DNA of 64,000 nucleotides, taken from contig CBDBLV010000005.1 in NCBI GenBank assembly GCA_965207225.1, positions 32,001 to 96,000 of the forward strand, given 5' to 3'. Under the pieces are notes generated by a model. It was given only the letters and a program-made list of their open reading frames with translations. It made no database searches and was not told the origin of the DNA. The first letter of the stretch is position 1, and the number at the start of each line of letters is the position of its first letter. Below are positions 17,537-43,693 of this stretch, in pieces. The translations under genes and the position numbers were made by a program. This DNA comes from Dehalococcoidia bacterium (GTDB taxonomy: Bacteria; Chloroflexota; Dehalococcoidia; Plut-88900).

Positions 17537-17611
17537 TGGTAGCGGGGGTTGGATTCGAACCAACGACCTTCGGGTTATGAGCCCGACGAGCTGCCACTGC
17601 TCCACCCCGCG
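17537..17611 (-). tRNA. tRNA-fMet (initiator, CAT)
   Basis: CGCGGGGTGGAGCAGTGGCAGCTCGTCGGGCTCATAACCCGAAGGTCGTTGGTTCGAATCCAACCCCCGCTACCA: C1-A72 mismatch, three G-C pairs in the anticodon stem, encoded CCA. Confidence 0.97.
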
Positions 17612-17618
17612 TCGGGTG

Positions 17619-20833
<3,215 letters not shown>

Positions 20834-35218: not shown

Positions 35219-35338
35219 CGGCCTACCCTATCCCCACCCCCCACCCCGGTCAACCTTCCACTCCCCTTCCATCCCAACGCCCCGCGACGAATCTACAGTG
35301 TCCCTGCTTCACTCACCTTGGCCTTGCCACTCCCACTC

Positions 35339-35461
35339 CTCCCCCGTACTGAACTAGAGGCCCACGTGGGTGCGACGCACCCACGTGGGCCTCTGTTCTT
35401 CTCTCCCCCTCTCCCTTATAGGCCCTAAGGGAGAGGGGGACCAAGGGGGTGAGGGTTCCCT
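35339..35461 (+). repeat. Double-hairpin dispersed repeat, copy 1
   Basis: Inverted copy at 41757-41880; 18-bp perfect stem followed by a CCCCTCTCCCT..AGGGAGAGGGG stem. Confidence 0.85.
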
Positions 35462-35550
35462 GCGAGGGTTGGGGGCATCCCTTCCCCTGTAGGGGTGCCC
35501 CTCGTGGGTACTCTGCCCGCCAACCACGCCAAGACTTGCATCCCTCCCCC

Positions 35551-35595
35551 CAACAAATCAAACCAATCCATCAATCCCACGAATCACAGTTCAGA
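35551..35595 (+). repeat. ATC-phased module (AATC-N-AATC-N-AATC-N-AATCACAGTTCAGA)
   Basis: Same 9/8/9 ATC spacing and identical AATCACAGTTCAGA end at 42655-42699 (-); degenerate third copy at ~42731-42777. Confidence 0.7.
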
Positions 35596-35624
35596 TATTC
35601 CCTTCAAAAGCCGCACATTTGCTC

Positions 35625-35653
35625 TTGACACACCTGTCCGACCGTACTATCAT
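35625..35653 (+). promoter_or_regulatory. sigma70 promoter of element A
   Basis: TTGACA (35625-30) N17 TATCAT (35648-53); conserved in copy B. Confidence 0.8.
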
Positions 35654-35659
35654 GTCCTC

Positions 35660-36197
35660 CGTCCGATCGAACACTAACTCACATCAGCAAAGGAGGAACC
35701 AAAAACCCAGGGAAGCCCCCGTGACCCGACACCGAGGACTCAACGCCCTAGCCCATCCCAAGACCTCTCCCCTCCCGTAGGGAGGCGACCGGCCAATCGC
35801 CCCCCCTCGTGAGACAGGCAGGTTGCGGCACAAGCGAAAAGCGCCATCTCCTCACCCAACGGGTCCCGTGACCCTTCCCCATCCATCCAGGCGATGGAAG
35901 GTCCACAACATTAAGCGGCACGCTCTTCACTTACGAGCCCTGCCGAAAAACCTCGGGCTATTACGCCCTTGGAAAAATCTCCCCCGTCGTTCCCCTCGGA
36001 GATTCCCGTTAACCCAGCGACGGTAGCGAGAAAACACCCACCCACCCCTCCGAGTGGGTCGGGAAAACTGAAAAACTGGTGGCAGAGACGCCCTCTGGCG
36101 AGAACCCCTCGCTTGTCTGCCATGTGACACAGGAATACGGGGCTGAACCAGGCTGGCCTCCCGCCCCCTGAAACTGAGTCCCGGACCTTCCATCGCC
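35660..36197 (+). ncRNA. Candidate large structured ncRNA, copy A
   Basis: No credible CDS; colinear blocks shared with 42029-42592(-); 15-bp perfect long-range pairing 35890-35904/36183-36197. Confidence 0.65.
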
Positions 36198-36287
36198 GAC
36201 CCCCTCCAAGACGGACAAACTGAAAACAGAAACCCCACAACTGAATAGAGACCGGGGTGTCACCGACCTGCCGGACCGGTGCGCCGG

Positions 36288-36345
36288 TTTGTACACCCCC
36301 GACCCTCGGGGTAGATTTGTACACCCCCGACCCTCGGGGTAGAAT
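36288..36345 (+). promoter_or_regulatory. Exact 28-bp tandem duplication containing the putative moaA promoter
   Basis: TTTGTACACCCCCGACCCTCGGGGTAGA twice (36288-36315, 36316-36343); TTGTAC-N17-TAGAAT. Confidence 0.7.
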
Positions 36346-36381
36346 GGAAGTCGGGAGGGGTGGCCTGTCCATTTCCAGCGC

Positions 36382-37422
36382 ATGAGCAACGACGCTTCCA
36401 CAACACACCCCGACGCCATTCTCGACCTGTTCGGGAGACCGCTGAGGGACCTGCGTATATCCGTCACCGACAGGTGCAACTTCAGATGCACCTTCTGCAT
36501 GCCCGCGGAGATATTCGGAGAGCGCTACCGCTTCCTGCCCAAGGATGACATCCTCACCTTCGAAGAGATAAGCCGCTTGGCCCAACTCTTCGTCAATCTC
36601 GGCGTCCGCAAGATACGCCTCACCGGCGGGGAGCCTCTCCTCCGCGACCAGCTTGAAATCCTTGTGGAACAGCTGGCCTCCATCGAAGGGCTGGAAGACC
36701 TGGCCCTCACGACCAATGCGTATCTTCTCTCCAAAAAGGCTCAGACACTAAAGGATGCCGGCCTGAAACGGGTCACAGTGAGCCTGCACACGCTGGATGA
36801 CCAGGTATTCGGGTACATGAATGGTCGGGGCTTCGGGACGGGTCGGGTGCTGGAAGGGATCCGGGCTGCGGAGGAAGCGGGTCTGGCCCCTATCAAGATT
36901 AACGTGGTCGTACAGAAGGGGGTCAACGAGCACACAATCGTCGACCTCACCCGCCGGGTCAAAGACATGGGCCACATCCTCCGCTTCATCGAGTTCATGG
37001 ACGTCGGCAACCTGAACCAGTGGGAGTCCGACCAGGTAGTCACCTCGCAGGAGATAGTCGGGCTCATCGAACGGGAGATGCCCCTTGAACCCGTCGACAA
37101 GAGCTACCGCGGCGAAGTCGCCGACCGCTACCGCTACGCCGACGGCAAAGGCGAGATCGGGGTCATATCCTCGGTGAGCAACCCGTTCTGCGGGGACTGC
37201 ACCCGGGCCCGCATCTCCGCCGAGGGCAAGGTCTACACCTGCCTGTTCGCATCCAAAGGGAATGACCTGCGCGGACCGCTCCGAGCCGGTGCCAGCGACG
37301 CGGACTTGACCGATATTATCAAAGGAATCTGGGCCCGCAGAGCCGACCGTTACTCGGAGGAGCGGGCTTCGCTCTCCGGGAGCCGCGCCAAGAAGGTGGA
37401 GATGTATCACATCGGCGGGTAG
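36382..37422 (+). CDS. moaA: GTP 3',8-cyclase MoaA
   Basis: LRISVTDRCNFRCTFC, PFCGDCTRAR...CLF, C-terminal MYHIGG. Confidence 0.97.
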   Translation: MSNDASTTHPDAILDLFGRPLRDLRISVTDRCNFRCTFCMPAEIFGERYRFLPKDDILTFEEISRLAQLFVNLGVRKIRLTGGEPLLRDQLEILVEQLASIEGLEDLALTTNAYLLSKKAQTLKDAGLKRVTVSLHTLDDQVFGYMNGRGFGTGRVLEGIRAAEEAGLAPIKINVVVQKGVNEHTIVDLTRRVKDMGHILRFIEFMDVGNLNQWESDQVVTSQEIVGLIEREMPLEPVDKSYRGEVADRYRYADGKGEIGVISSVSNPFCGDCTRARISAEGKVYTCLFASKGNDLRGPLRAGASDADLTDIIKGIWARRADRYSEERASLSGSRAKKVEMYHIGG

Positions 37423-37460
37423 CGGCGCCGGTGCAAATGGGAAAAGGAGAATTACCGGCC

Positions 37461-37937
37461 ATGCCAAACTACTGGATGATCGTAAGCTCGGCGGAAAACT
37501 TCGAGATCTCCCGGGAGCTGGGGTTCGAACTGCAGGGGATCAAGAGCCGGCACCGGAAGAAGGCGGAGAGGATGGAGCCCGGGGATCGGGTGCTCTACTA
37601 CCTGACCGGTGTTCAGCAGTTCGGGGGAACGGCGACCATAACCTCGCCCTATTACGAAGACCGCGCCCCGATCTGGAACAGCAAGAAGAAGGGCGAGGAG
37701 TACCCCTTCCGGTTCGGCATCAAGCCCGACCTGATCCTGGAGCCCGGTACATACGTGGACGCCAAGTCCATAGTCCCGCACCTGGAATACGTGAAGAGGT
37801 GGCCGCCCCAGCACTGGCACCTGGCCTTCCAGGGCAACGTACACCTGTTTTCGGAAGAGGACTTCTCCTTCATAGAGGGTGAGATAAGCAAGCGAATGCC
37901 GGAGCGCGAGGCGTCGGGGTCGGCGGCTGCCGGGTAG
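37461..37937 (+). CDS. EVE domain protein
   Basis: NYWMIV...MEPGDRVLYY...YPFRF, PUA/EVE-like. Confidence 0.8.
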   Translation: MPNYWMIVSSAENFEISRELGFELQGIKSRHRKKAERMEPGDRVLYYLTGVQQFGGTATITSPYYEDRAPIWNSKKKGEEYPFRFGIKPDLILEPGTYVDAKSIVPHLEYVKRWPPQHWHLAFQGNVHLFSEEDFSFIEGEISKRMPEREASGSAAAG

Positions 37938-37940
37938 AAA

Positions 37941-38633
37941 ATGCCTGACACCGGGCCCATAGACCTACCTCTTTTTCCCCTCAACGTTGTCCTATATCCG
38001 GGCATGGCCCTGCCTCTTCGCATATTCGAAGAGCGTTACAAGCTGATGATGCAGAAATGCATGGAGGGAGACAGGACATTCGGGGTGGTACTGATAAGGG
38101 AAGGGAAAGAGGTGGGCGGATCGGCGATTCCCTTCGAAGTGGGAACAGTGGCGAAGATTACGGATGTCGTGCCCCAGGGCCAGGGAAGGATGCACCTGAG
38201 CGCGATAGGACAAGACGTATTCCGCATAGTCGACGTCCAGCAGATAACCCCGTATATGGTGGGCCGCGTGGCGTTGCTGGAAAAGACCGAAGAACCTACT
38301 CCGAACGAATTGACAAACCGGGTCGTGCGCCACTTCCGGACCTACATGTCGCTATTGACGTCGTTGCGGGGTGGCGGGGACGGGGCGGTTGAGCTGGACC
38401 GGGACCCGGAAAGGCTTTCCTACACGGTGGCGGCAGAGCTGATGGCCGGGCCCCGGGAGAAGCAAGGCTTGCTGGAAGCGCCCTCGGCGAGGGCGCGTCT
38501 GGAAGAAGAGCTGAAGCTGCTCCAATCGACGAACCTGAGCCTGGAACTGTTCCTTGCAGAGAAGAGGAAGAAGGAGGCCCAGGGAGGCAAGAAGGACGAC
38601 TCCTCTGACAGGCCTCGGTTTTCTCTCAACTGA
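37941..38633 (+). CDS. LON peptidase substrate-binding domain protein
   Basis: LPLFPLNVVLYPG..LPLRIFEERYKLM. Confidence 0.9.
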   Translation: MPDTGPIDLPLFPLNVVLYPGMALPLRIFEERYKLMMQKCMEGDRTFGVVLIREGKEVGGSAIPFEVGTVAKITDVVPQGQGRMHLSAIGQDVFRIVDVQQITPYMVGRVALLEKTEEPTPNELTNRVVRHFRTYMSLLTSLRGGGDGAVELDRDPERLSYTVAAELMAGPREKQGLLEAPSARARLEEELKLLQSTNLSLELFLAEKRKKEAQGGKKDDSSDRPRFSLN

Positions 38634-38691
38634 CACCATTTACAACGGGCTTTGAAGCCCTCCCCTTGATTCTTTTAGGTCAACAGGCAGC

Positions 38692-39837
38692 CTAGTCGGA
38701 GGCGAGGACGAGGGTGCCGGTGGAGGAGAGGGTGCCTCCCGTGCCGTTGACGAGGCAGGTCTTGGCATCCTTCACCTGCCGATCGCCGCACTCGCCCCTG
38801 AGCTGCCGGGCGGCCTCCAGTAGGAGGAACATCCCGTACATGCCGGTGTGACAGTAGGAGAGGCCGCCGCCGTTGGTGTTCATCGGGAAGTCCCCGCCGG
38901 GCGCAGTCCGCTGGTTGGCAACGAACTCGGGGCCTTCGCCACGGCCGCAGAAGCCGAGGGACTCCAGGGTGATGAGGACGGTGTAGGTGAAGGAGTCATA
39001 GATCATGGCCAGGTCTATGTCGTCGTGGGTGAGGCCTGCCATTTCGAGGGCCCGGGGTCCAGTCTCGCGGGCAATGGTGGAGCAGAGGTCGGCCTGCTGG
39101 CCGATGCCGTCACCATGATCGTGGCCTTCGGCGGAGCCGAGGATCCAGACGGGCTTCTTCTTGGTGTTACGGGCCACGGCGGCTGAGGTGACGACGGTGG
39201 CCCCGCCGCCGTCGGTCACGAGACAGCAGTCGAAGAGGTGGAAGGGCCAGGAGATCCATCGGGACTCGTGGTAATCCTGGATGGTCATGTCGTCCTGCAT
39301 GAAGGCCTTGGGGTTCAGCTGCGCCCATTTGCGGGTGGCGACAGCTATTTCGGCCAGGGCGTCCCGGGTGCGCTCCTCGCCGAATTCGTGCATATATCGG
39401 CTACAGGCCAAGGCGTAACCGTGAGGGGCTATGACCAGGCCGTAGGGGTCCTCGTACTGGGCGCCGGGCATGTTGGGGTCGTCCCCTGCATAGGCCCGAG
39501 AGCTGCGCCCCGCCTCGCCGTGAACGATCAGGGCAACGTCGATGAGTCCGGCACTGATGGCGGCCAGGGCGTGCTCGACGTAGATGACGAAGGAAGAGCC
39601 ACCGACGTTGGTGCCGTCGGTGTACTTGGGCGTAATGCCCATGTACTCGGCCATGTTATAGGGAGACGGACCTGCCACGAACAGCCCGTCAACGTCAGAG
39701 AGGGAGAGGCCGGCGTCATCAAGAGCGTTAAATGCGGCCTCCGAGCCTAGCTGGAGGCGGGATTTGTTGGGGACGCGGCCTATTTCGTCGGACTCGTCAA
39801 CGCCGACAATTGCAGCCTTTCGCGAAAGGTCAGCCAT
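38692..39837 (-). CDS. SCP2-type thiolase-like protein
   Basis: AQLNPKA, DCCLVTDGG, IYDSFT, NTNGGGLSYCH. Confidence 0.88.
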   Translation of the reverse strand: MADLSRKAAIVGVDESDEIGRVPNKSRLQLGSEAAFNALDDAGLSLSDVDGLFVAGPSPYNMAEYMGITPKYTDGTNVGGSSFVIYVEHALAAISAGLIDVALIVHGEAGRSSRAYAGDDPNMPGAQYEDPYGLVIAPHGYALACSRYMHEFGEERTRDALAEIAVATRKWAQLNPKAFMQDDMTIQDYHESRWISWPFHLFDCCLVTDGGGATVVTSAAVARNTKKKPVWILGSAEGHDHGDGIGQQADLCSTIARETGPRALEMAGLTHDDIDLAMIYDSFTYTVLITLESLGFCGRGEGPEFVANQRTAPGGDFPMNTNGGGLSYCHTGMYGMFLLLEAARQLRGECGDRQVKDAKTCLVNGTGGTLSSTGTLVLASD

Positions 39838-39881
39838 GAGGGACCTCCTTGTTAGAGCTACCCGGGGCCCGGGAGTATGGG

Positions 39882-40292
39882 CTAGGCGGGTTTGAATTTG
39901 GGAAGGGAGATCTCGTCGGTTATGTCTTCGAAGACCACCTCAACGGGCATGCCGATGGAGAGGTTGTCGGGTGAGGGGTCGTCGATGACGATGTTGGTGG
40001 GCATCCTGGCGCCTTCCTCCAGTTCCACCACGGCCGCCACGTAGGGGCAGTGCTCACGGAAGGGAGGCGGGGAGCGGTGGACTATGGTGAAGGCGTAGAT
40101 CGTGCCCTTGCCGCTGCTCTGGACCCAGGAAACATCCTTGCATTGGTAGCCGGGGCAGAAGTCCCTGGGATAGAAGAAGACCGTGTCGCATTCGTTGCAC
40201 TTGCGCAGCCACAACTCGTGGGCCTTGGCTTTCTCCCAGTAGTAGTCTGACTCGGGCTGGGGGACGGGAACGGGTCGGTCGTAATCTGCCAT
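39882..40292 (-). CDS. DUF35 Zn-ribbon/OB-fold protein
   Basis: CNEC...YPRDFCP, GKGTIYAFT, VELEEG, IGMPVEVVF. Confidence 0.9.
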   Translation of the reverse strand: MADYDRPVPVPQPESDYYWEKAKAHELWLRKCNECDTVFFYPRDFCPGYQCKDVSWVQSSGKGTIYAFTIVHRSPPPFREHCPYVAAVVELEEGARMPTNIVIDDPSPDNLSIGMPVEVVFEDITDEISLPKFKPA

Positions 40293-40333
40293 ATCAATCA
40301 CCTCTTTCGAAATAGCGTGATTCGTTTCTCTCT

Positions 40334-41479
40334 CTAGTCGGCGGCCAGGACAATGGTGCCAGTGGAGGACAGGGTTCCTCCGGTGCCGTTGACAAGGGAG
40401 GTCTTGGCACCGGCGACCTGGCGGTCTCCGCATTCGCCCCTGAGCTGCCGGGCGGCTTCGAGGAGGAGGAACATGCCGTACATGCCGGTGTGGCAGTAGG
40501 AAAGGCCGCCGCCGTTGGTGTTCATGGGGAAGTCGCCGCCGGGCGCAGTCCGCTGGTTGGCAACGAAGTCAGGCCCCTCGCCCCGTCCGCAAAAGCCGAG
40601 GGACTCCAGGGTGATGAGCACGGTGTAGGTGAAGGAGTCATAGATCATGGCGAGGTCTATGTCGTCGTGGGTGAGGCCTGCCATTTCGAGGGCCCGGGGC
40701 CCGGTCTCACGGGCGATGGTGGAGCAGAGGTCGTGCTGCTGGAGGATTCCCTCGCCGTGGTCGTGGCCCTCTGCGGTGCCCAGTACCCAGACCGGCTTCT
40801 TCTTGGTGTTCTTGGCCACCGCCGCGGAGGTGATTACCGTGGCGCCGCCGCCATCGGTGACGAGGCAGCAGTCGAAGAGGTGGAAGGGCCAGGAGATCCA
40901 GCGGGACTCGTTGTAGTCCTCCATGGACATGTCGTCCTTGATGAAGGACTTGGGGTTGAGCTGCGCCCATTTCCGGGTGGAAACGGCAATCTCGCCGAGG
41001 GCGTTCTGGGTGCGCTCCTGTCCGAACTCGTGCATGTAGCGGGTGGCGGCAAGGGCGTAGGGATGAGGCTCGATGACGAGGCCATAGGGATGCTCGTACT
41101 GAGCTATGGGCATGTTGGGGTCGTCCCCTGCATAGGCCCGAGAGCTGCGTCCCGCTTCGCCGTGAACGATCAGGGCCACCTCAATGAGTCCGGCGCTGAT
41201 GGCAGCGAGGGCGTGCTCCACGTAAATTACGAAGGAAGAGCCGCCGACGTTGGTGCCGTCGGTGTACTTGGGTACGATGCCCATATATTCGGCCATGTTA
41301 TAGGGAGACGGGCCAGCGACGAAAAGCCCGTCGACGTCCGATAGTGAGAGGCCGGCGTCGTCGAGGGCGTTGAAAGCAGCCTCCGAGCCTAGCTGGAGGC
41401 GGGACTTGTTGGGCACCTTGCCAATCTCGTCGGACTCGTCAACGCCGACGATAGCGGCCATACGGGACAGATCTGACAT
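40334..41479 (-). CDS. SCP2-type thiolase-like protein (close paralog)
   Basis: Same length and almost all residues shared with 38692..39837. Confidence 0.88.
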   Translation of the reverse strand: MSDLSRMAAIVGVDESDEIGKVPNKSRLQLGSEAAFNALDDAGLSLSDVDGLFVAGPSPYNMAEYMGIVPKYTDGTNVGGSSFVIYVEHALAAISAGLIEVALIVHGEAGRSSRAYAGDDPNMPIAQYEHPYGLVIEPHPYALAATRYMHEFGQERTQNALGEIAVSTRKWAQLNPKSFIKDDMSMEDYNESRWISWPFHLFDCCLVTDGGGATVITSAAVAKNTKKKPVWVLGTAEGHDHGEGILQQHDLCSTIARETGPRALEMAGLTHDDIDLAMIYDSFTYTVLITLESLGFCGRGEGPDFVANQRTAPGGDFPMNTNGGGLSYCHTGMYGMFLLLEAARQLRGECGDRQVAGAKTSLVNGTGGTLSSTGTIVLAAD

Positions 41480-41666
41480 TATCGACCTCCTGCGGTTATG
41501 GGGGCGTGCCTGACCAGGGGCGGGATGGCCCGCGCAGAGGCACAAGATTGATAGTGGTTCCCCCCAAAAGCGGCCCTTATTCTATATTCGGGCGTCGGGG
41601 GTGTCAATTTGGCACATTCATTCGGTGGTCCAGCGGCAAGCCGGGTCCTTATTCGGTTGTGGGGTT

Positions 41667-41718
41667 TTGATTGAACGTTGATTGAACTCGTAGCTGTTTT
41701 GATTGAATGACGCCTAAA
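41667..41718. repeat. Phased GATTGAA repeat, short copy
   Basis: 48 of 52 nt identical to 15351-15402. Confidence 0.8.
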
Positions 41719-41756
41719 GGGACGACGGGGGATTTCGCGTGGCGCAGGGGACGGGA

Positions 41757-41880
41757 AGGGAACCCTCACCCCCTTGATCCCCCTCTCCCTCAGGGCCATT
41801 GAGGGAGAGGGGGAGAGAAGAACAGAGGCAGAGGTCGGCGCTTCTGCGCCGACCTCTGCCTCTAGTTCAGTACTGGGGAG
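41757..41880 (-). repeat. Double-hairpin dispersed repeat, copy 2
   Basis: Reverse complement of 35339-35461 with compensatory stem changes. Confidence 0.85.
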
Positions 41881-41929
41881 AGGGCCGGGGATGGGGTGAA
41901 CTGCGGGGTTGTGGGTGATTTTTCCGGAG

Positions 41930-41960
41930 GGATGGATTCCTGCCTCCGCAGGAATGACGG
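41930..41960. repeat. REP-like palindrome
   Basis: GGATGGATTCCTGCCTCCGCAGGAATGAC, same family as ~33360-33390. Confidence 0.65.
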
Positions 41961-42028
41961 AGAGGGGAGGCGGTGGGTTATTGGGTTGTGGGATTTGGGT
42001 TGGCATTTTGTTTGTTGGGTTTTGGGTT

Positions 42029-42592
42029 GGCGATGGAGGTCCGGGACTCGGATGCAGGACCTCGATGGCACCTACGCCGACGCTGGTGGCATCGGCGGTT
42101 GTCCTGCCTTTCCCTTCACGCATGCCTTGGGAGACTTGCCGGTGTCGAGGGCGTCTCTGCGTGGGGACATCCGCTCTCCGCATCAGCGCTCGACCGCTGT
42201 ACGGGGCGGCATATCGGCTCGATTACCGCCGTGGGCGGAAGGAGCCGCATAAGGGCGCTAAGGCCCTGCATAACGAGTCAGAAGACTCGCGGAATTCCTC
42301 GACGAGGGTAAAGTCGGCGAGGCGTATACGCCCGGGTAAGGGGCGTCGTATCGGCAAGGGCGTCGTTATAGAGAGGCCTGCTGCCGCATAGAGTCGATGG
42401 ACCATCCATCGCCTGGAAGCCAGGGAAGGGGGTACGGGACCCGTGGTGAGGAGATAACACCTTCAGCTTGAGCCTCGGGCCTGCGCGAGGGCCTTTGGGA
42501 TGGGCGAGTGCGTTGAGTCCCTCAGGTCGGGTCTCGGGGGCTTCCCCGGGGTTTTGGTTCCTCCTTCTATTATCAGATGTTTGTTCGAACGC
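42029..42592 (-). ncRNA. Candidate large structured ncRNA, copy B
   Basis: Colinear conserved blocks with copy A; pairing 42399-42413 with 42029-42042 and 42515-42521 with 42043-42049. Confidence 0.65.
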
Positions 42593-42597
42593 AGGAT

Positions 42598-42626
42598 ATG
42601 ATAGTACGGTCGGACGGGTGTGTCAA
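42598..42626 (-). promoter_or_regulatory. sigma70 promoter of element B
   Basis: Minus strand TTGACA (42626-21) N17 TATCAT (42603-598); one mismatch to copy A over 29 bp. Confidence 0.8.
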
Positions 42627-42711
42627 GAGCAAATGTGCGGCTATTGGGGGAATATCTGAACTGTGATTTATGGGATAAAGGGATTACTTTGATTTCTTGA
42701 AGGGGGGCGTC

Positions 42712-43167
42712 TCAGCAGAGGGCACCTTTATCTGTATTGGGATCTATGGGGATTGCTGGGTTTCCCTGGTTCTCTTGCTTGAATTTGCTGTTGGCGAGTC
42801 TTTTGAATTGGAGGCTTTTGGCACCGAAATTGATTAGTAGTCCTACCTCTAGGTCATAGGCTTCCAGGTAGTTGATGGCCTGTGCAAGGTGAACATCTTC
42901 GAGTTTAATGACGGCCTTTAGCTCAACGGAGACCAGGCCATCGACCAGGAAGTCCACCCTTCTAGTGCCGATCTGCTGCTCTTTGTAGTAGATGGGCATT
43001 TCATGCTCCCGGCTGAAGGAAAGTCCCTGGTCGGCCATCTCGATCTCCAATGCCCGCTGGTAGATCACCTCCTGGAAGCCGTTACCCAAGGCTGAATGCA
43101 CCGTCATCGCGCACCCGATAACCCTTCCGGTCAACTCCGAATACTTGTAGTTACCGCTGGTCATCAC
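42712..43167 (-). CDS. GxxExxY protein (PD-(D/E)XK-like nuclease family)
   Basis: LGNGFQEVIY, RVDFLV...VELK, QAINYL...GLLINFG. Confidence 0.93.
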   Translation of the reverse strand: MMTSGNYKYSELTGRVIGCAMTVHSALGNGFQEVIYQRALEIEMADQGLSFSREHEMPIYYKEQQIGTRRVDFLVDGLVSVELKAVIKLEDVHLAQAINYLEAYDLEVGLLINFGAKSLQFKRLANSKFKQENQGNPAIPIDPNTDKGALC

Positions 43168-43336
43168 CTCTGCCTATCATATCGCACCTTCCTATCCCAA
43201 ACTGACTTGAGGATCACCCTTCCAAAGTCAAAGCTCATCACTAAATCAAATGAATCAGAGTACATATAGTAGACTGGGAACGGGTCGGCGCGTAGAATGG
43301 CCTCAGAGAGCATGACTTAGAAACCAGGAGGAAATC

Positions 43337-43693
43337 ATGGCTGCATCCGGGATAACTCTATACACGAAACGCTCCTGAACTTCGTGCAGAAGGGCGAAGG
43401 AGTTTCTTTCGCAGAACGAGATAGAGCACATCGAGCGGGACATCTTCAAGGAGCCCCTGTCCCGTGAAGAGATCGAGGGACTGTTGAAGATAATCCCTAT
43501 GGACCAGCTATTCTCACGTAAGAGTCGGGCGGTGAAGAAGCTGGGGCTGGACGTCGACGCCCTGTCCGACGACGAGAAGCTGGACCTGATGCTCCAGGAA
43601 CCGGCGCTGTTGAAGCGGCCGATTGTGGTGGGAGGGTCGGAGCCGGTGCTGGGGTATAACGTGGAGGCGCTGGAGAGCGCGGTCGGGGGTTAG
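43337..43693 (+). CDS. ArsC/Spx-family thioredoxin-fold protein, putative selenoprotein (UxxC)
   Basis: AGGAGG RBS, ATG 43337, MAASGITLYTKRS-TGA(43376-78)-TSCRRAKEFL...LLKRPIV, in frame with the ORF-track fragment 43484..43693. Confidence 0.85.

Follow-up and report, generated by a model that had tools for sequence, protein, structure and literature searches.

The 64,000-nucleotide stretch analyzed here (contig CBDBLV010000005.1, positions 32,001 to 96,000, of the Dehalococcoidia assembly GCA_965207225.1; hereafter the window) carries a gene for a predicted nuclease of the GxxExxY family, and next to this gene lies a short module of phased ATC cores which recurs elsewhere in the window without a gene. 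The module is probably one arm of a hairpin-armed GxxExxY cassette, selfish DNA resembling the pairing of REPINs, the hairpin-forming doublets made up of REP (repetitive extragenic palindromic) sequences, with RAYT (REP-associated tyrosine transposase) genes, and the solo arms found within the genus are probably passengers located at the promoters of a second repeat family, a large RNA element. Alignments identified the module as an arm of this cassette, and the cassette as a discrete unit which is present or absent as a block and which is common to different phyla at high identity; gene-less doublets and solo arms were identified in the same way. The RNA element is separate from the nuclease cassette and consists of a promoter and a long leader, free of open reading frames (ORFs), that lies before unrelated genes.

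Modules, nuclease gene and RNA elements in the window

The features on which the analysis turns are as follows.

42655..43265, minus strand: whole GxxExxY cassette, 611 bp, with degenerate left arm, gene, the gene's own decayed tail and intact right arm; bounded by homology breaks in relatives
42655..42701, minus strand: module B, a right arm of type b; AATC units spaced 9/8/9 nt, together with the terminal inverted repeat ...AAATCACAGTTCAGA
42712..43167, minus strand: GxxExxY / PD-(D/E)XK nuclease gene, 151 amino acids (aa); PF13366, TIGR04256; predicted catalytic residues kept
42725..42786, minus strand: tail of the gene itself, representing a first right arm in decay, which codes KFKQENQGNPAIP and then reads through
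43243..43265, plus strand: candidate degenerate left arm, inverted relative to module B; plus strand AAATCAAATGAATCAGAGTACAT, aligning with Poribacteria GTCTGAACTGTGATTTGTATGATTGAGTGATGG
35552..35595, plus strand: module A, a solo right arm of type a without gene or left arm
35625..36260, plus strand: RNA element copy A, with promoter, leader, core from AAGGAGGAACC at 35690 and 3' block to about 36260; faces moaA (36382)
41975..42626, minus strand: RNA element copy B, with promoter, core from 42566 and 3' block to about 41978; faces a thiolase-like gene (41545)
35625-35630 and 35648-35653, plus strand: copy A promoter, TTGACA and TATCAT
42626-42621 and 42603-42598, minus strand: copy B promoter, -35 and -10

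The initial annotation had described an ATC-phased module just 3' of the gene, a second, gene-less copy with an identical end, and the abutment of both on the promoters of a large RNA candidate, and all three observations were borne out. Module B, read as the reverse complement of 42655-42701, is TTCAAGAAATCAAAGTAATCCCTTTATCCCATAAATCACAGTTCAGA; it starts 11 nt past the TGA of the 151-aa ORF and has ATC starts spaced 9/8/9. Module A (35552-35595, plus strand) is AACAAATCAAACCAATCCATCAATCCCACGAATCACAGTTCAGA, has no adjoining gene and ends in AATCACAGTTCAGA, identical to the end of module B. One extra ATC gives module A a spacing of 9/4/4/9, which is also 9/8/9 once this ATC is ignored. From the end of either module, 28-29 nt lead to the -35 box of a TTGACA-N17-TATCAT promoter, and the two promoters read into a pair of homologous stretches, inverted relative to each other, each about 600 nt long and without ORFs. 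At copy B, gene, module, promoter and RNA adjoin one another in the same orientation. This junction was covered by an 18.8-kb contig, possibly from the sample of origin, which spans 42586-43300 with zero differences. A query made of the copy-A locus (the peptidase gene and the spacer 3' of it) gave only partial matches.

Architecture and spread of the GxxExxY cassette

An exact 31-nt pattern from the module, sought in one genome per species, was found at 64 loci in metagenome-assembled genomes, 48 from Dehalococcoidia, 15 from Candidatus Poribacteria and 1 from Lewinellaceae. At the Lewinellaceae locus and at one Poribacteria locus the pattern formed the 3' terminus of an intact GxxExxY gene, with a protein 79% and 76% identical to that of the window, respectively. 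At these intact genes GGC AAT CCC AAA ATC CCA TAA codes for ..GNPKIP-stop, with ATCACAGTTCAGAC coming next, so that some of the ATC phasing consists of codons. Intact GxxExxY genes could be aligned at their 3' ends with module B without gaps. Directly 5' of the Poribacteria genes lay GTCTGAACTGTGATTTGTATGATTGAGTGATGG, the inverted left arm, and 5' of the Lewinellaceae gene lay two gene-less units of about 85 nt bounded by the same inverted ends. No match to the 31-nt pattern was obtained in a scan of viral contigs.

We propose that a full cassette would begin with a left arm, in which GTCTGAACTGTGATT is followed by TGATT units, two or three in number and 8-9 nt apart; after a gap of some 15-35 nt would come a gene of about 125-140 codons, and then a right arm mirroring the left, with AATC units every 8-9 nt ending in AATCACAGTTCAGAC. 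The stop and the final dozen codons of the gene (..NQGNPxI.) would lie within the right arm. Module B has the AATC units every 8-9 nt with ..AATCACAGTTCAGAC at or over the stop that mark a right arm, and a decayed copy of the same arrangement is present in the tail of the gene. The candidate left arm at 43243-43265 is degenerate (TGTACTCTGATT versus TCTGAACTGTGATT), and its distance to the start codon is about 75 nt, compared with the usual 15-35 nt. The interval 42655-43265 would accordingly be read as a decaying cassette with a degenerate left arm, a frameshifted tail, and a second, intact right arm, module B, at its outer edge.

A scan of metagenomes with the protein confirmed 324 relatives, and the best 80 of these (72-86% aa identity, from very different habitats) were used to examine the arms. 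Among the 70 loci with full flanks, a left-type arm 5' and a right-type arm 3' of the gene were present together in 46, with the order swapped in 3; at least one arm motif was found at all 70, as compared with 13/272 distal control windows per motif. When the 32 unique arm pairs were compared, arms from the same cassette matched at 14.28 of 18 positions versus 13.06 of 18 for cross-pairs, a value reached in 0/5000 permutations, and matched variants on both arms included CCACTG, CCTTTG, GTCAGAA and GTCTGCAC. Relatedness between elements contributes to this match, so that it demonstrates co-inheritance of complementary changes and not a mechanism. By eye, and uncounted, many of the metagenome cassettes filled the space from the 3' end of an hsdS-like gene to the start codon ATG of the restriction-system gene that comes next, often hsdM or hsdR, with AA(A)TG after the right arm. 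In a Dehalococcoidia genome of 4.3 Mb (G043) the one PF13366 gene was flanked by a different inverted array (CCTTTGCGC x4), and the cassette layout thus seems wider than a single repeat sequence. Three points are new: a decaying cassette has two tails, solo arms are joined to the promoters of another repeat family, and Chloroflexota, Poribacteria and Bacteroidota share a near-identical unit.

The GxxExxY protein and its C-terminal tail

The 151-aa ORF matched PF13366 (PDDEXK_3; E 1.2e-37, 129.2 bits against a cut-off of 22, residues 11-123) and the NCBIfam GxxExxY protein family TIGR04256 (136.5 bits against a cut-off of 35). PF13366 was the sole Pfam match of the gene, with no match to the HUH Y1 transposase domain of RAYT proteins. 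Residues G30, E33, Y36, D72, E82 and K84 were invariant across 26 aligned sequences, the window protein included. An AlphaFold2 model (mean pLDDT, the predicted local distance difference score, 82.3) had a confident core and a disordered C-terminal stretch of 18 residues, and a Foldseek search with this model returned weak PD-(D/E)XK matches, the best being Cas4 SSO0001 (E 2.5e-4, template modeling score 0.50), with lambda exonuclease also among them. The protein is a predicted nuclease of the PD-(D/E)XK fold. PADLOC gave no family for this protein and a PDB sequence search gave no match. A 2012 survey of the PD-(D/E)XK superfamily (PMC3424549) lists PF13366/GxxExxY as a family of unknown function whose phylogeny includes multiple transfers. 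A literature search, with subscription journals outside its coverage, found no paper describing the cassette layout.

The tail of the window gene contains an extra C (ATCCCCATAG versus ATCCCATAA in relatives), which removes the TAA stop used by the orthologue in another genome of the genus (G005) and by other relatives. The window protein therefore continues as IDPNTDKGALC, while the G005 orthologue ends in ..NPAIP. A degenerate copy of the module, which the initial annotation had placed within the last codons, is present in the sense that alignment with relatives identifies it as the gene's own canonical tail (...KFKQENQGNPAIP), now decayed and explained by homology; taken by itself the resemblance is weak, with a local alignment score of 18 that was matched by 62/2000 shuffles. 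At five metagenome loci (L183, L196, L200, L237 and L169) the right-arm stop was also lost and the reading frame crossed the terminal inverted repeat, so that the protein ends in, for instance, ..NHSSDN. It is therefore arm DNA, in translation, that makes up the variable C-termini of the GxxExxY family.

Gene-less doublets and solo arms

The end of the arm was sought as a 15-nt motif with at most 1 mismatch, for which the reversed control gave 0-1 matches per genome. The numbers of end motifs were:

G043, Dehalococcoidia, 4.3 Mb: 247
G045, Poribacteria: 104
G044, Poribacteria: 26
G041, Lewinellaceae: 10
G042, Poribacteria: 4

Among the G043 matches listed, at least 30 convergent pairs of end motifs lay 65-97 nt apart, and each of the 20 pairs examined was a palindromic doublet of 86-112 nt, mostly with four GATT/AATC units per arm. 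Unit spacing within the doublets was 8-9 nt in 55/57 left and 54/62 right intervals. In gapless alignments of their right arms, 28-36 of 44 positions agreed with module A and 22-34 of 44 with module B. The six doublets that were folded gave long hairpins of about -19 to -26 kcal/mol with DNA parameters. Several of the G043 doublets (L266, L271, L274-L277) lie inside a second repeated context, with identical 14-nt flanks that recur, sometimes reverse-complemented; a preferred target or a composite repeat may be the reason.

Within the genus only solo arms were observed. A left-arm-like motif was present within 300 nt of 0/36 module instances in the four module-bearing genomes, and no doublets were found there; the module instances of the genus are therefore solo arms. 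The left-arm motif used here was permissive (1631 chance-level matches genome-wide) and served for this neighborhood test alone. In the window's own assembly of 4.03 Mb (G000) the matches to the module signature were always solo arms, and module A and seven other G000 modules are solo right arms.

Such arms could also act at the RNA level, as a stem around the GxxExxY frame serving processing, stability or operon insulation, with ordinary recombination accounting for their spread. Intervening sequences in 23S rRNA and REP sequences that stabilize mRNA are precedents for arms of this kind. Complementarity and co-variation of the arms, the hairpins predicted for the doublets, and the many cassettes seen by eye to lie exactly between operon genes, from stop to ATG, often hsdS and hsdM/hsdR, all fit such a role. 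Mismatches between the arms, however, showed no sense-strand G-U bias (11 of G-U type against 8 of A-C type), and because of this an RNA-level role is not favored; nor are solo arms able to form a stem. Active or horizontal spread is needed to account for hundreds of gene-less doublets in one genome and for proteins that are 72-86% identical although they come from at least three phyla and very different habitats. We regard an RNA-level role with spread by ordinary recombination as distinctly improbable.

The RNA element and the orthologous loci

Comparison of RNA copy A with its own assembly gave 73 matching pieces, which resolved into 46 places, and anchoring on the conserved 5' block (AAGGAGGAACC) defined 38 RNA copies. 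These elements measure 330-790 nt, and 33 of the 38 have a 3'-block match of at least 53 nt. Three promoter/leader types were distinguished, class 1 (n=16), class 2 (n=11) and class 3 (n=11), and the module was present on 8/38 copies, namely 7/16 of class 1, 1/11 of class 2 and 0/11 of class 3. With a crude gene caller, 34/37 copies were found to face a co-oriented gene 417-1365 nt from the core start; in the window these are moaA for copy A and the thiolase-like gene for copy B. At the gathering score, Rfam models passed in the 64-kb window only for large subunit (LSU) rRNA and one tRNA, and with E values up to 10 in 35300-43300 only chance-level matches of microRNA type were returned, with no match to HEARO and no family for the RNA or the module.

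Many intergenic spacers of G000 also contain a family of GC-rich palindromic units, usually just upstream of RNA-element promoters. In the window these units, such as TCCCCCTCTCCCTTATAGGCCCTAAGGGAGAGGGGGA with ..AAGGGGGTGAGGGTTCCC.. after it, lie at 35374-35461 and 41757-41844. Past the end of RNA copy A and before the start of moaA, a 28-nt unit with a short hairpin (CCCCGACCCTCGGGG) is exactly duplicated in tandem (36288-36343).

Across the nine genomes of the genus the RNA core was present in 9/9, the module in 4/9 and PF13366 in 2/9, while the RNA core was found in 0/3 genomes from other genera of the same family. The two genomes with PF13366 (G000 and G005, by protein query and by profile) each carry it as a single copy at the orthologous locus, and tblastn likewise detected one GxxExxY gene in G000 against some 38 RNA copies. 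At the G005 locus the gene and a type-b module are followed by a convergent 494-aa gene with no RNA promoter, and the outer cassette junction is the same as in the window. The G008 locus has RNA B with its promoter, and about 330 bp of other repeats replace 42656-43265, with neither gene nor module. The cassette is absent from the orthologous loci of G007 and G001, and the G006 locus has neither RNA nor cassette. The window ceases to be homologous to G008 at 42656, and exactly at 43266 homology sets in again with G008, G007 and G001. The outer edge of the candidate left arm at 43243-43265 coincides with this boundary at 43266, and the cassette is therefore 42655-43265.

The initial annotation had proposed that copy B was an autonomous element made of nuclease, repeat and large RNA, in the manner of nuclease-plus-guide-RNA systems, and that copy A was its non-autonomous derivative. 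In favor of this proposal, the four parts are contiguous and co-oriented in the window, and all eight full modules in G000 and 8/9 modules in G008 abut an RNA-element promoter. The joining of nuclease and repeat was upheld by the intact genes, the 46/70 metagenome loci and the doublets, but that of the RNA to either was not. A single PF13366 gene stands beside about 38 RNA copies, and RNA homologs elsewhere are not near GxxExxY genes (RNA 9/9, PF13366 2/9), the very outcome that had been named beforehand as contradicting the link. In G008 RNA B occurs without gene or module, in G005 gene and module occur without RNA promoter, and outside the genus the cassette is found without an RNA of this kind; among the 80 metagenome loci many, by eye and uncounted, lie between restriction-system genes. 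The RNA copies act, moreover, as promoter-plus-leader units for downstream genes, and only a minority carry the module. Copy A cannot then be upheld as a non-autonomous copy of a three-part unit, the RNA being independent of the gene. The mismatch in phyletic distribution between RNA, module and PF13366, together with the differences between loci, therefore refutes the three-part unit, to which we leave no more than a very small probability. IscB/TnpB omega-RNA and HEARO elements, which pair a nuclease with a guide RNA, differ from the present case in the same respect, and in Rfam HEARO gave no match.

Distribution of the module in the genus

The module was counted in the nine genomes with a 22-mer signature allowing at most 3 mismatches. 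There were 9 matches in G000, 9 in G008, 13 in G005, 5 in G006 and none in the other five, and the reversed 22-mer gave none except for one match in G004. The count of 9 against a reversed control of 0 in G000, obtained as the initial annotation had suggested, is far from chance. Eight of the nine G000 matches were full modules abutting an RNA-element promoter, seven of class 1 and one of class 2, and the ninth was a 14-nt partial. In G005, six modules lie before two tandem promoters of an operon with a small ORF and a terminase-large-subunit-like gene, at three loci; of the other modules one is perhaps before another promoter, and 6/13 have no promoter behind them. All five G006 modules are located at the 3' end of a promoter-driven element of about 1 kb, with no promoter behind. 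The 34 full instances aligned without gaps to AACAAATCAAAnCAATCCnTnAATCCCAyGAATCACAGTTCAGA, with flanks unrelated between instances, and the best-kept part was the terminal CACAGTTCAGA and not the ATC cores.

The operon of small ORF and terminase-large-subunit-like gene is of note in itself. It lies behind two tandem strong promoters with look-alike leaders and occurs in several copies per genome (G005 L023, L028 and L033; G000 C1:232700-234650 and C5:241700-243550). The ~1-kb module-ended element of G006 holds a stretch resembling a decayed piece of the terminase gene. As the module precedes the terminase-like operon in G005, a function as a pac/cos or late-promoter site was considered and rejected, the same operons in G000 having no module and the GxxExxY origin providing an explanation. 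An apparent AT-rich island ending in the 14-nt partial module (G000 C3:141111) proved to be an AT-rich spacer of about 170 nt 5' of a 476-codon ORF with a signal-peptide-like N-terminus.

The positions of the modules raise the alternative that a solo arm has been co-opted in the genus as a cis-regulatory array of four phased protein sites at about -64 to -108. The distance from module to -35 is near-fixed (27-29 nt, or 19 nt) over at least four promoter types in three species, namely the class 1 and class 2 RNA promoters of G000 and G008 and the two terminase-operon promoters of G005. The orientation of module to promoter is always the same, and the module is conserved without gaps in four species while both flanks vary. 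These points are countered in part by shared descent of the promoter regions, which would account for the fixed distance. Against a regulatory array, the 5/5 G006 copies and 6/13 G005 copies have no promoter behind them, only 8/38 RNA promoters in G000 have a module, and 5/9 genomes of the genus have the RNA without the module. Conservation peaks at the terminal CACAGTTCAGA where an array would have it at the ATC cores, and no candidate binding protein was identified. On balance we consider co-option as a regulatory array unlikely, if less so than a role of the arms at the RNA level.

A proposed route for the cassette and the solo arms

In the cassette reading, which we prefer, the nuclease would recognize the phased arm units, or the hairpin or cruciform that they form, and would promote copying or insertion of cassettes and gene-less doublets. 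By analogy with REPIN/RAYT systems, the nuclease may thereby act on its own arms and drive their spread. A solo arm would once have landed in a G5-loop-C5 hairpin just 5' of a strong promoter, would then have been copied along with the multiplying promoter-plus-leader RNA element (about 38 copies) and would have been lost from most of them. Where an RNA copy has the module, it is inserted into the loop of a GGGGG-TAT-TCCCC hairpin, with TATyCCyCCCC on both sides, and copies that lack it have no such insertion. From module to -35, moreover, the sequence is common to the class-2 RNA promoter and one promoter of a G005 terminase operon. Both observations support the view that the solo arms upstream of promoters are passengers, likely copied with the promoter region.

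Several observations weigh against this account. Transposition or cleavage by the system is itself a proposal. Empty-site alleles had been suggested as a check, and none that was clean was found among G008, G007, G001 and G006; the first three hold a repeat-rich spacer of about 290-640 nt. Inspection by eye of 20 doublets and 5 cassettes revealed no target-site duplication, and the bases flanking the doublets, mostly TT...AA, are mere extensions of the palindrome. The cassette in the window has two copies of the right arm, where a full cassette would have one. Counts of the module do not track the gene, G008 (9 modules) and G006 (5 modules) both being without a PF13366 gene. Similarly, G043 has 247 end motifs but one PF13366 gene, which belongs to another subfamily, so its doublets have no cognate gene in the assembly. 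Finally, module conservation across four species is about 85-95%, gapless and like that of coding DNA, and this, as with the near-fixed distance to the -35, would fit a regulatory role equally well.

Comparison with known systems

The likeness to RAYT/REP that the initial annotation had drawn holds for the layout, a gene with arms and gene-less doublets, but not for the enzyme. As set out by Bertels and Rainey (2011; PMC3116915), REP/REPIN systems with RAYT genes share with the cassette a single- or low-copy enzyme gene flanked by inverted short repeats, dispersed extragenic gene-less inverted doublets for which hairpins are predicted, singlets as decay products, and the lack of a classical transposase. 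By contrast, the enzyme here is a PF13366 protein of about 130 aa with the PD-(D/E)XK fold, where RAYT is an HUH Y1 transposase; the arms have 3-5 short units every 8-9 nt, where REP is one palindrome; and the mobility of the cassette is a prediction, where intermediates are known for REPINs. The right arm of the cassette further differs in overlapping the last codons and stop, and the unit is almost unchanged between phyla.

Miniature inverted-repeat transposable elements (MITEs) and other small transposons bounded by terminal inverted repeats, such as the Correia elements of Neisseria, also have gene-less short copies, intergenic insertion and occasional juxtaposition to promoters. Unlike these, the cassette has neither a DDE transposase nor a target-site duplication, and its only ORF is a minimal nuclease. 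Integron cassettes are likewise small promoterless ORF units bounded by imperfect palindromes, often in arrays and with the next ATG directly after. Integron attC sites have the core motifs RYYYAAC...GTTRRRY, and the outer boxes of the present cassette (GTCTGAAC...GTTCAGAC) resemble attC inverse-core and core boxes plus one extra base. In contrast to integron cassettes, the ORF here is usually inside the palindrome (46/70) and not beside it, and the 8-9-nt phased units have no attC counterpart. No integron integrase turned up, although no search aimed at integrases was made.

We put forward more tentatively, as a claim somewhat more apt to fail than to hold, that GxxExxY nucleases with phased hairpin arms constitute an undescribed minimal class of selfish DNA, which crosses phyla and seeds hundreds of doublets, and whose orphan arms in this genus were captured beside strong promoters where they may be upstream control sites for the RNA family of promoter and leader. 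Were this true, the large GxxExxY/PF13366 family would gain a testable role, that of a nuclease maintaining or moving its own hairpin repeats, and bacteria would have a second counterpart to REP/RAYT which is enzymatically unrelated to the first. For annotation, the conserved '..NQGNPxIx' tail would be constrained by DNA repeats and not by protein function, and AATC-phased repeats near promoters or operon junctions could be recognized as cassette arms rather than as regulatory sites. In the window itself, two repeat systems which a reader might easily merge are now separated.

Other features of the window

Paralogous thiolase-like genes (PF22691) at 38692-39837 and 40334-41545, both on the minus strand, are 88% identical over a 300-nt repeat at their 3' ends and flank a gene for a ChsH2-type protein with an oligonucleotide-binding (OB) fold and zinc ribbon. 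ARAGORN reported a tRNA-Thr at 41221-41295 (plus strand), inside a thiolase-like ORF on the opposite strand; this is probably a false call, because Rfam was silent there at the gathering score. A 23S rRNA gene at 17537-20796 (minus strand; 3139 nt versus a model of 2925 positions) contains inserted stretches and is followed by tRNA-Met, with no 16S or 5S match within the 64-kb window. Lastly, 43337-43693 (plus strand) would encode one 118-aa protein of the ArsC/Spx family if the in-frame TGA at 43376-43378 were read through (..LYTKRS-U-TSCRRAKEFL..), making it a candidate selenoprotein. This TGA is presumably at the expected place of the first Cys of a CxxC-type motif, and the orthologous site in G006 has the same in-frame TGA context.

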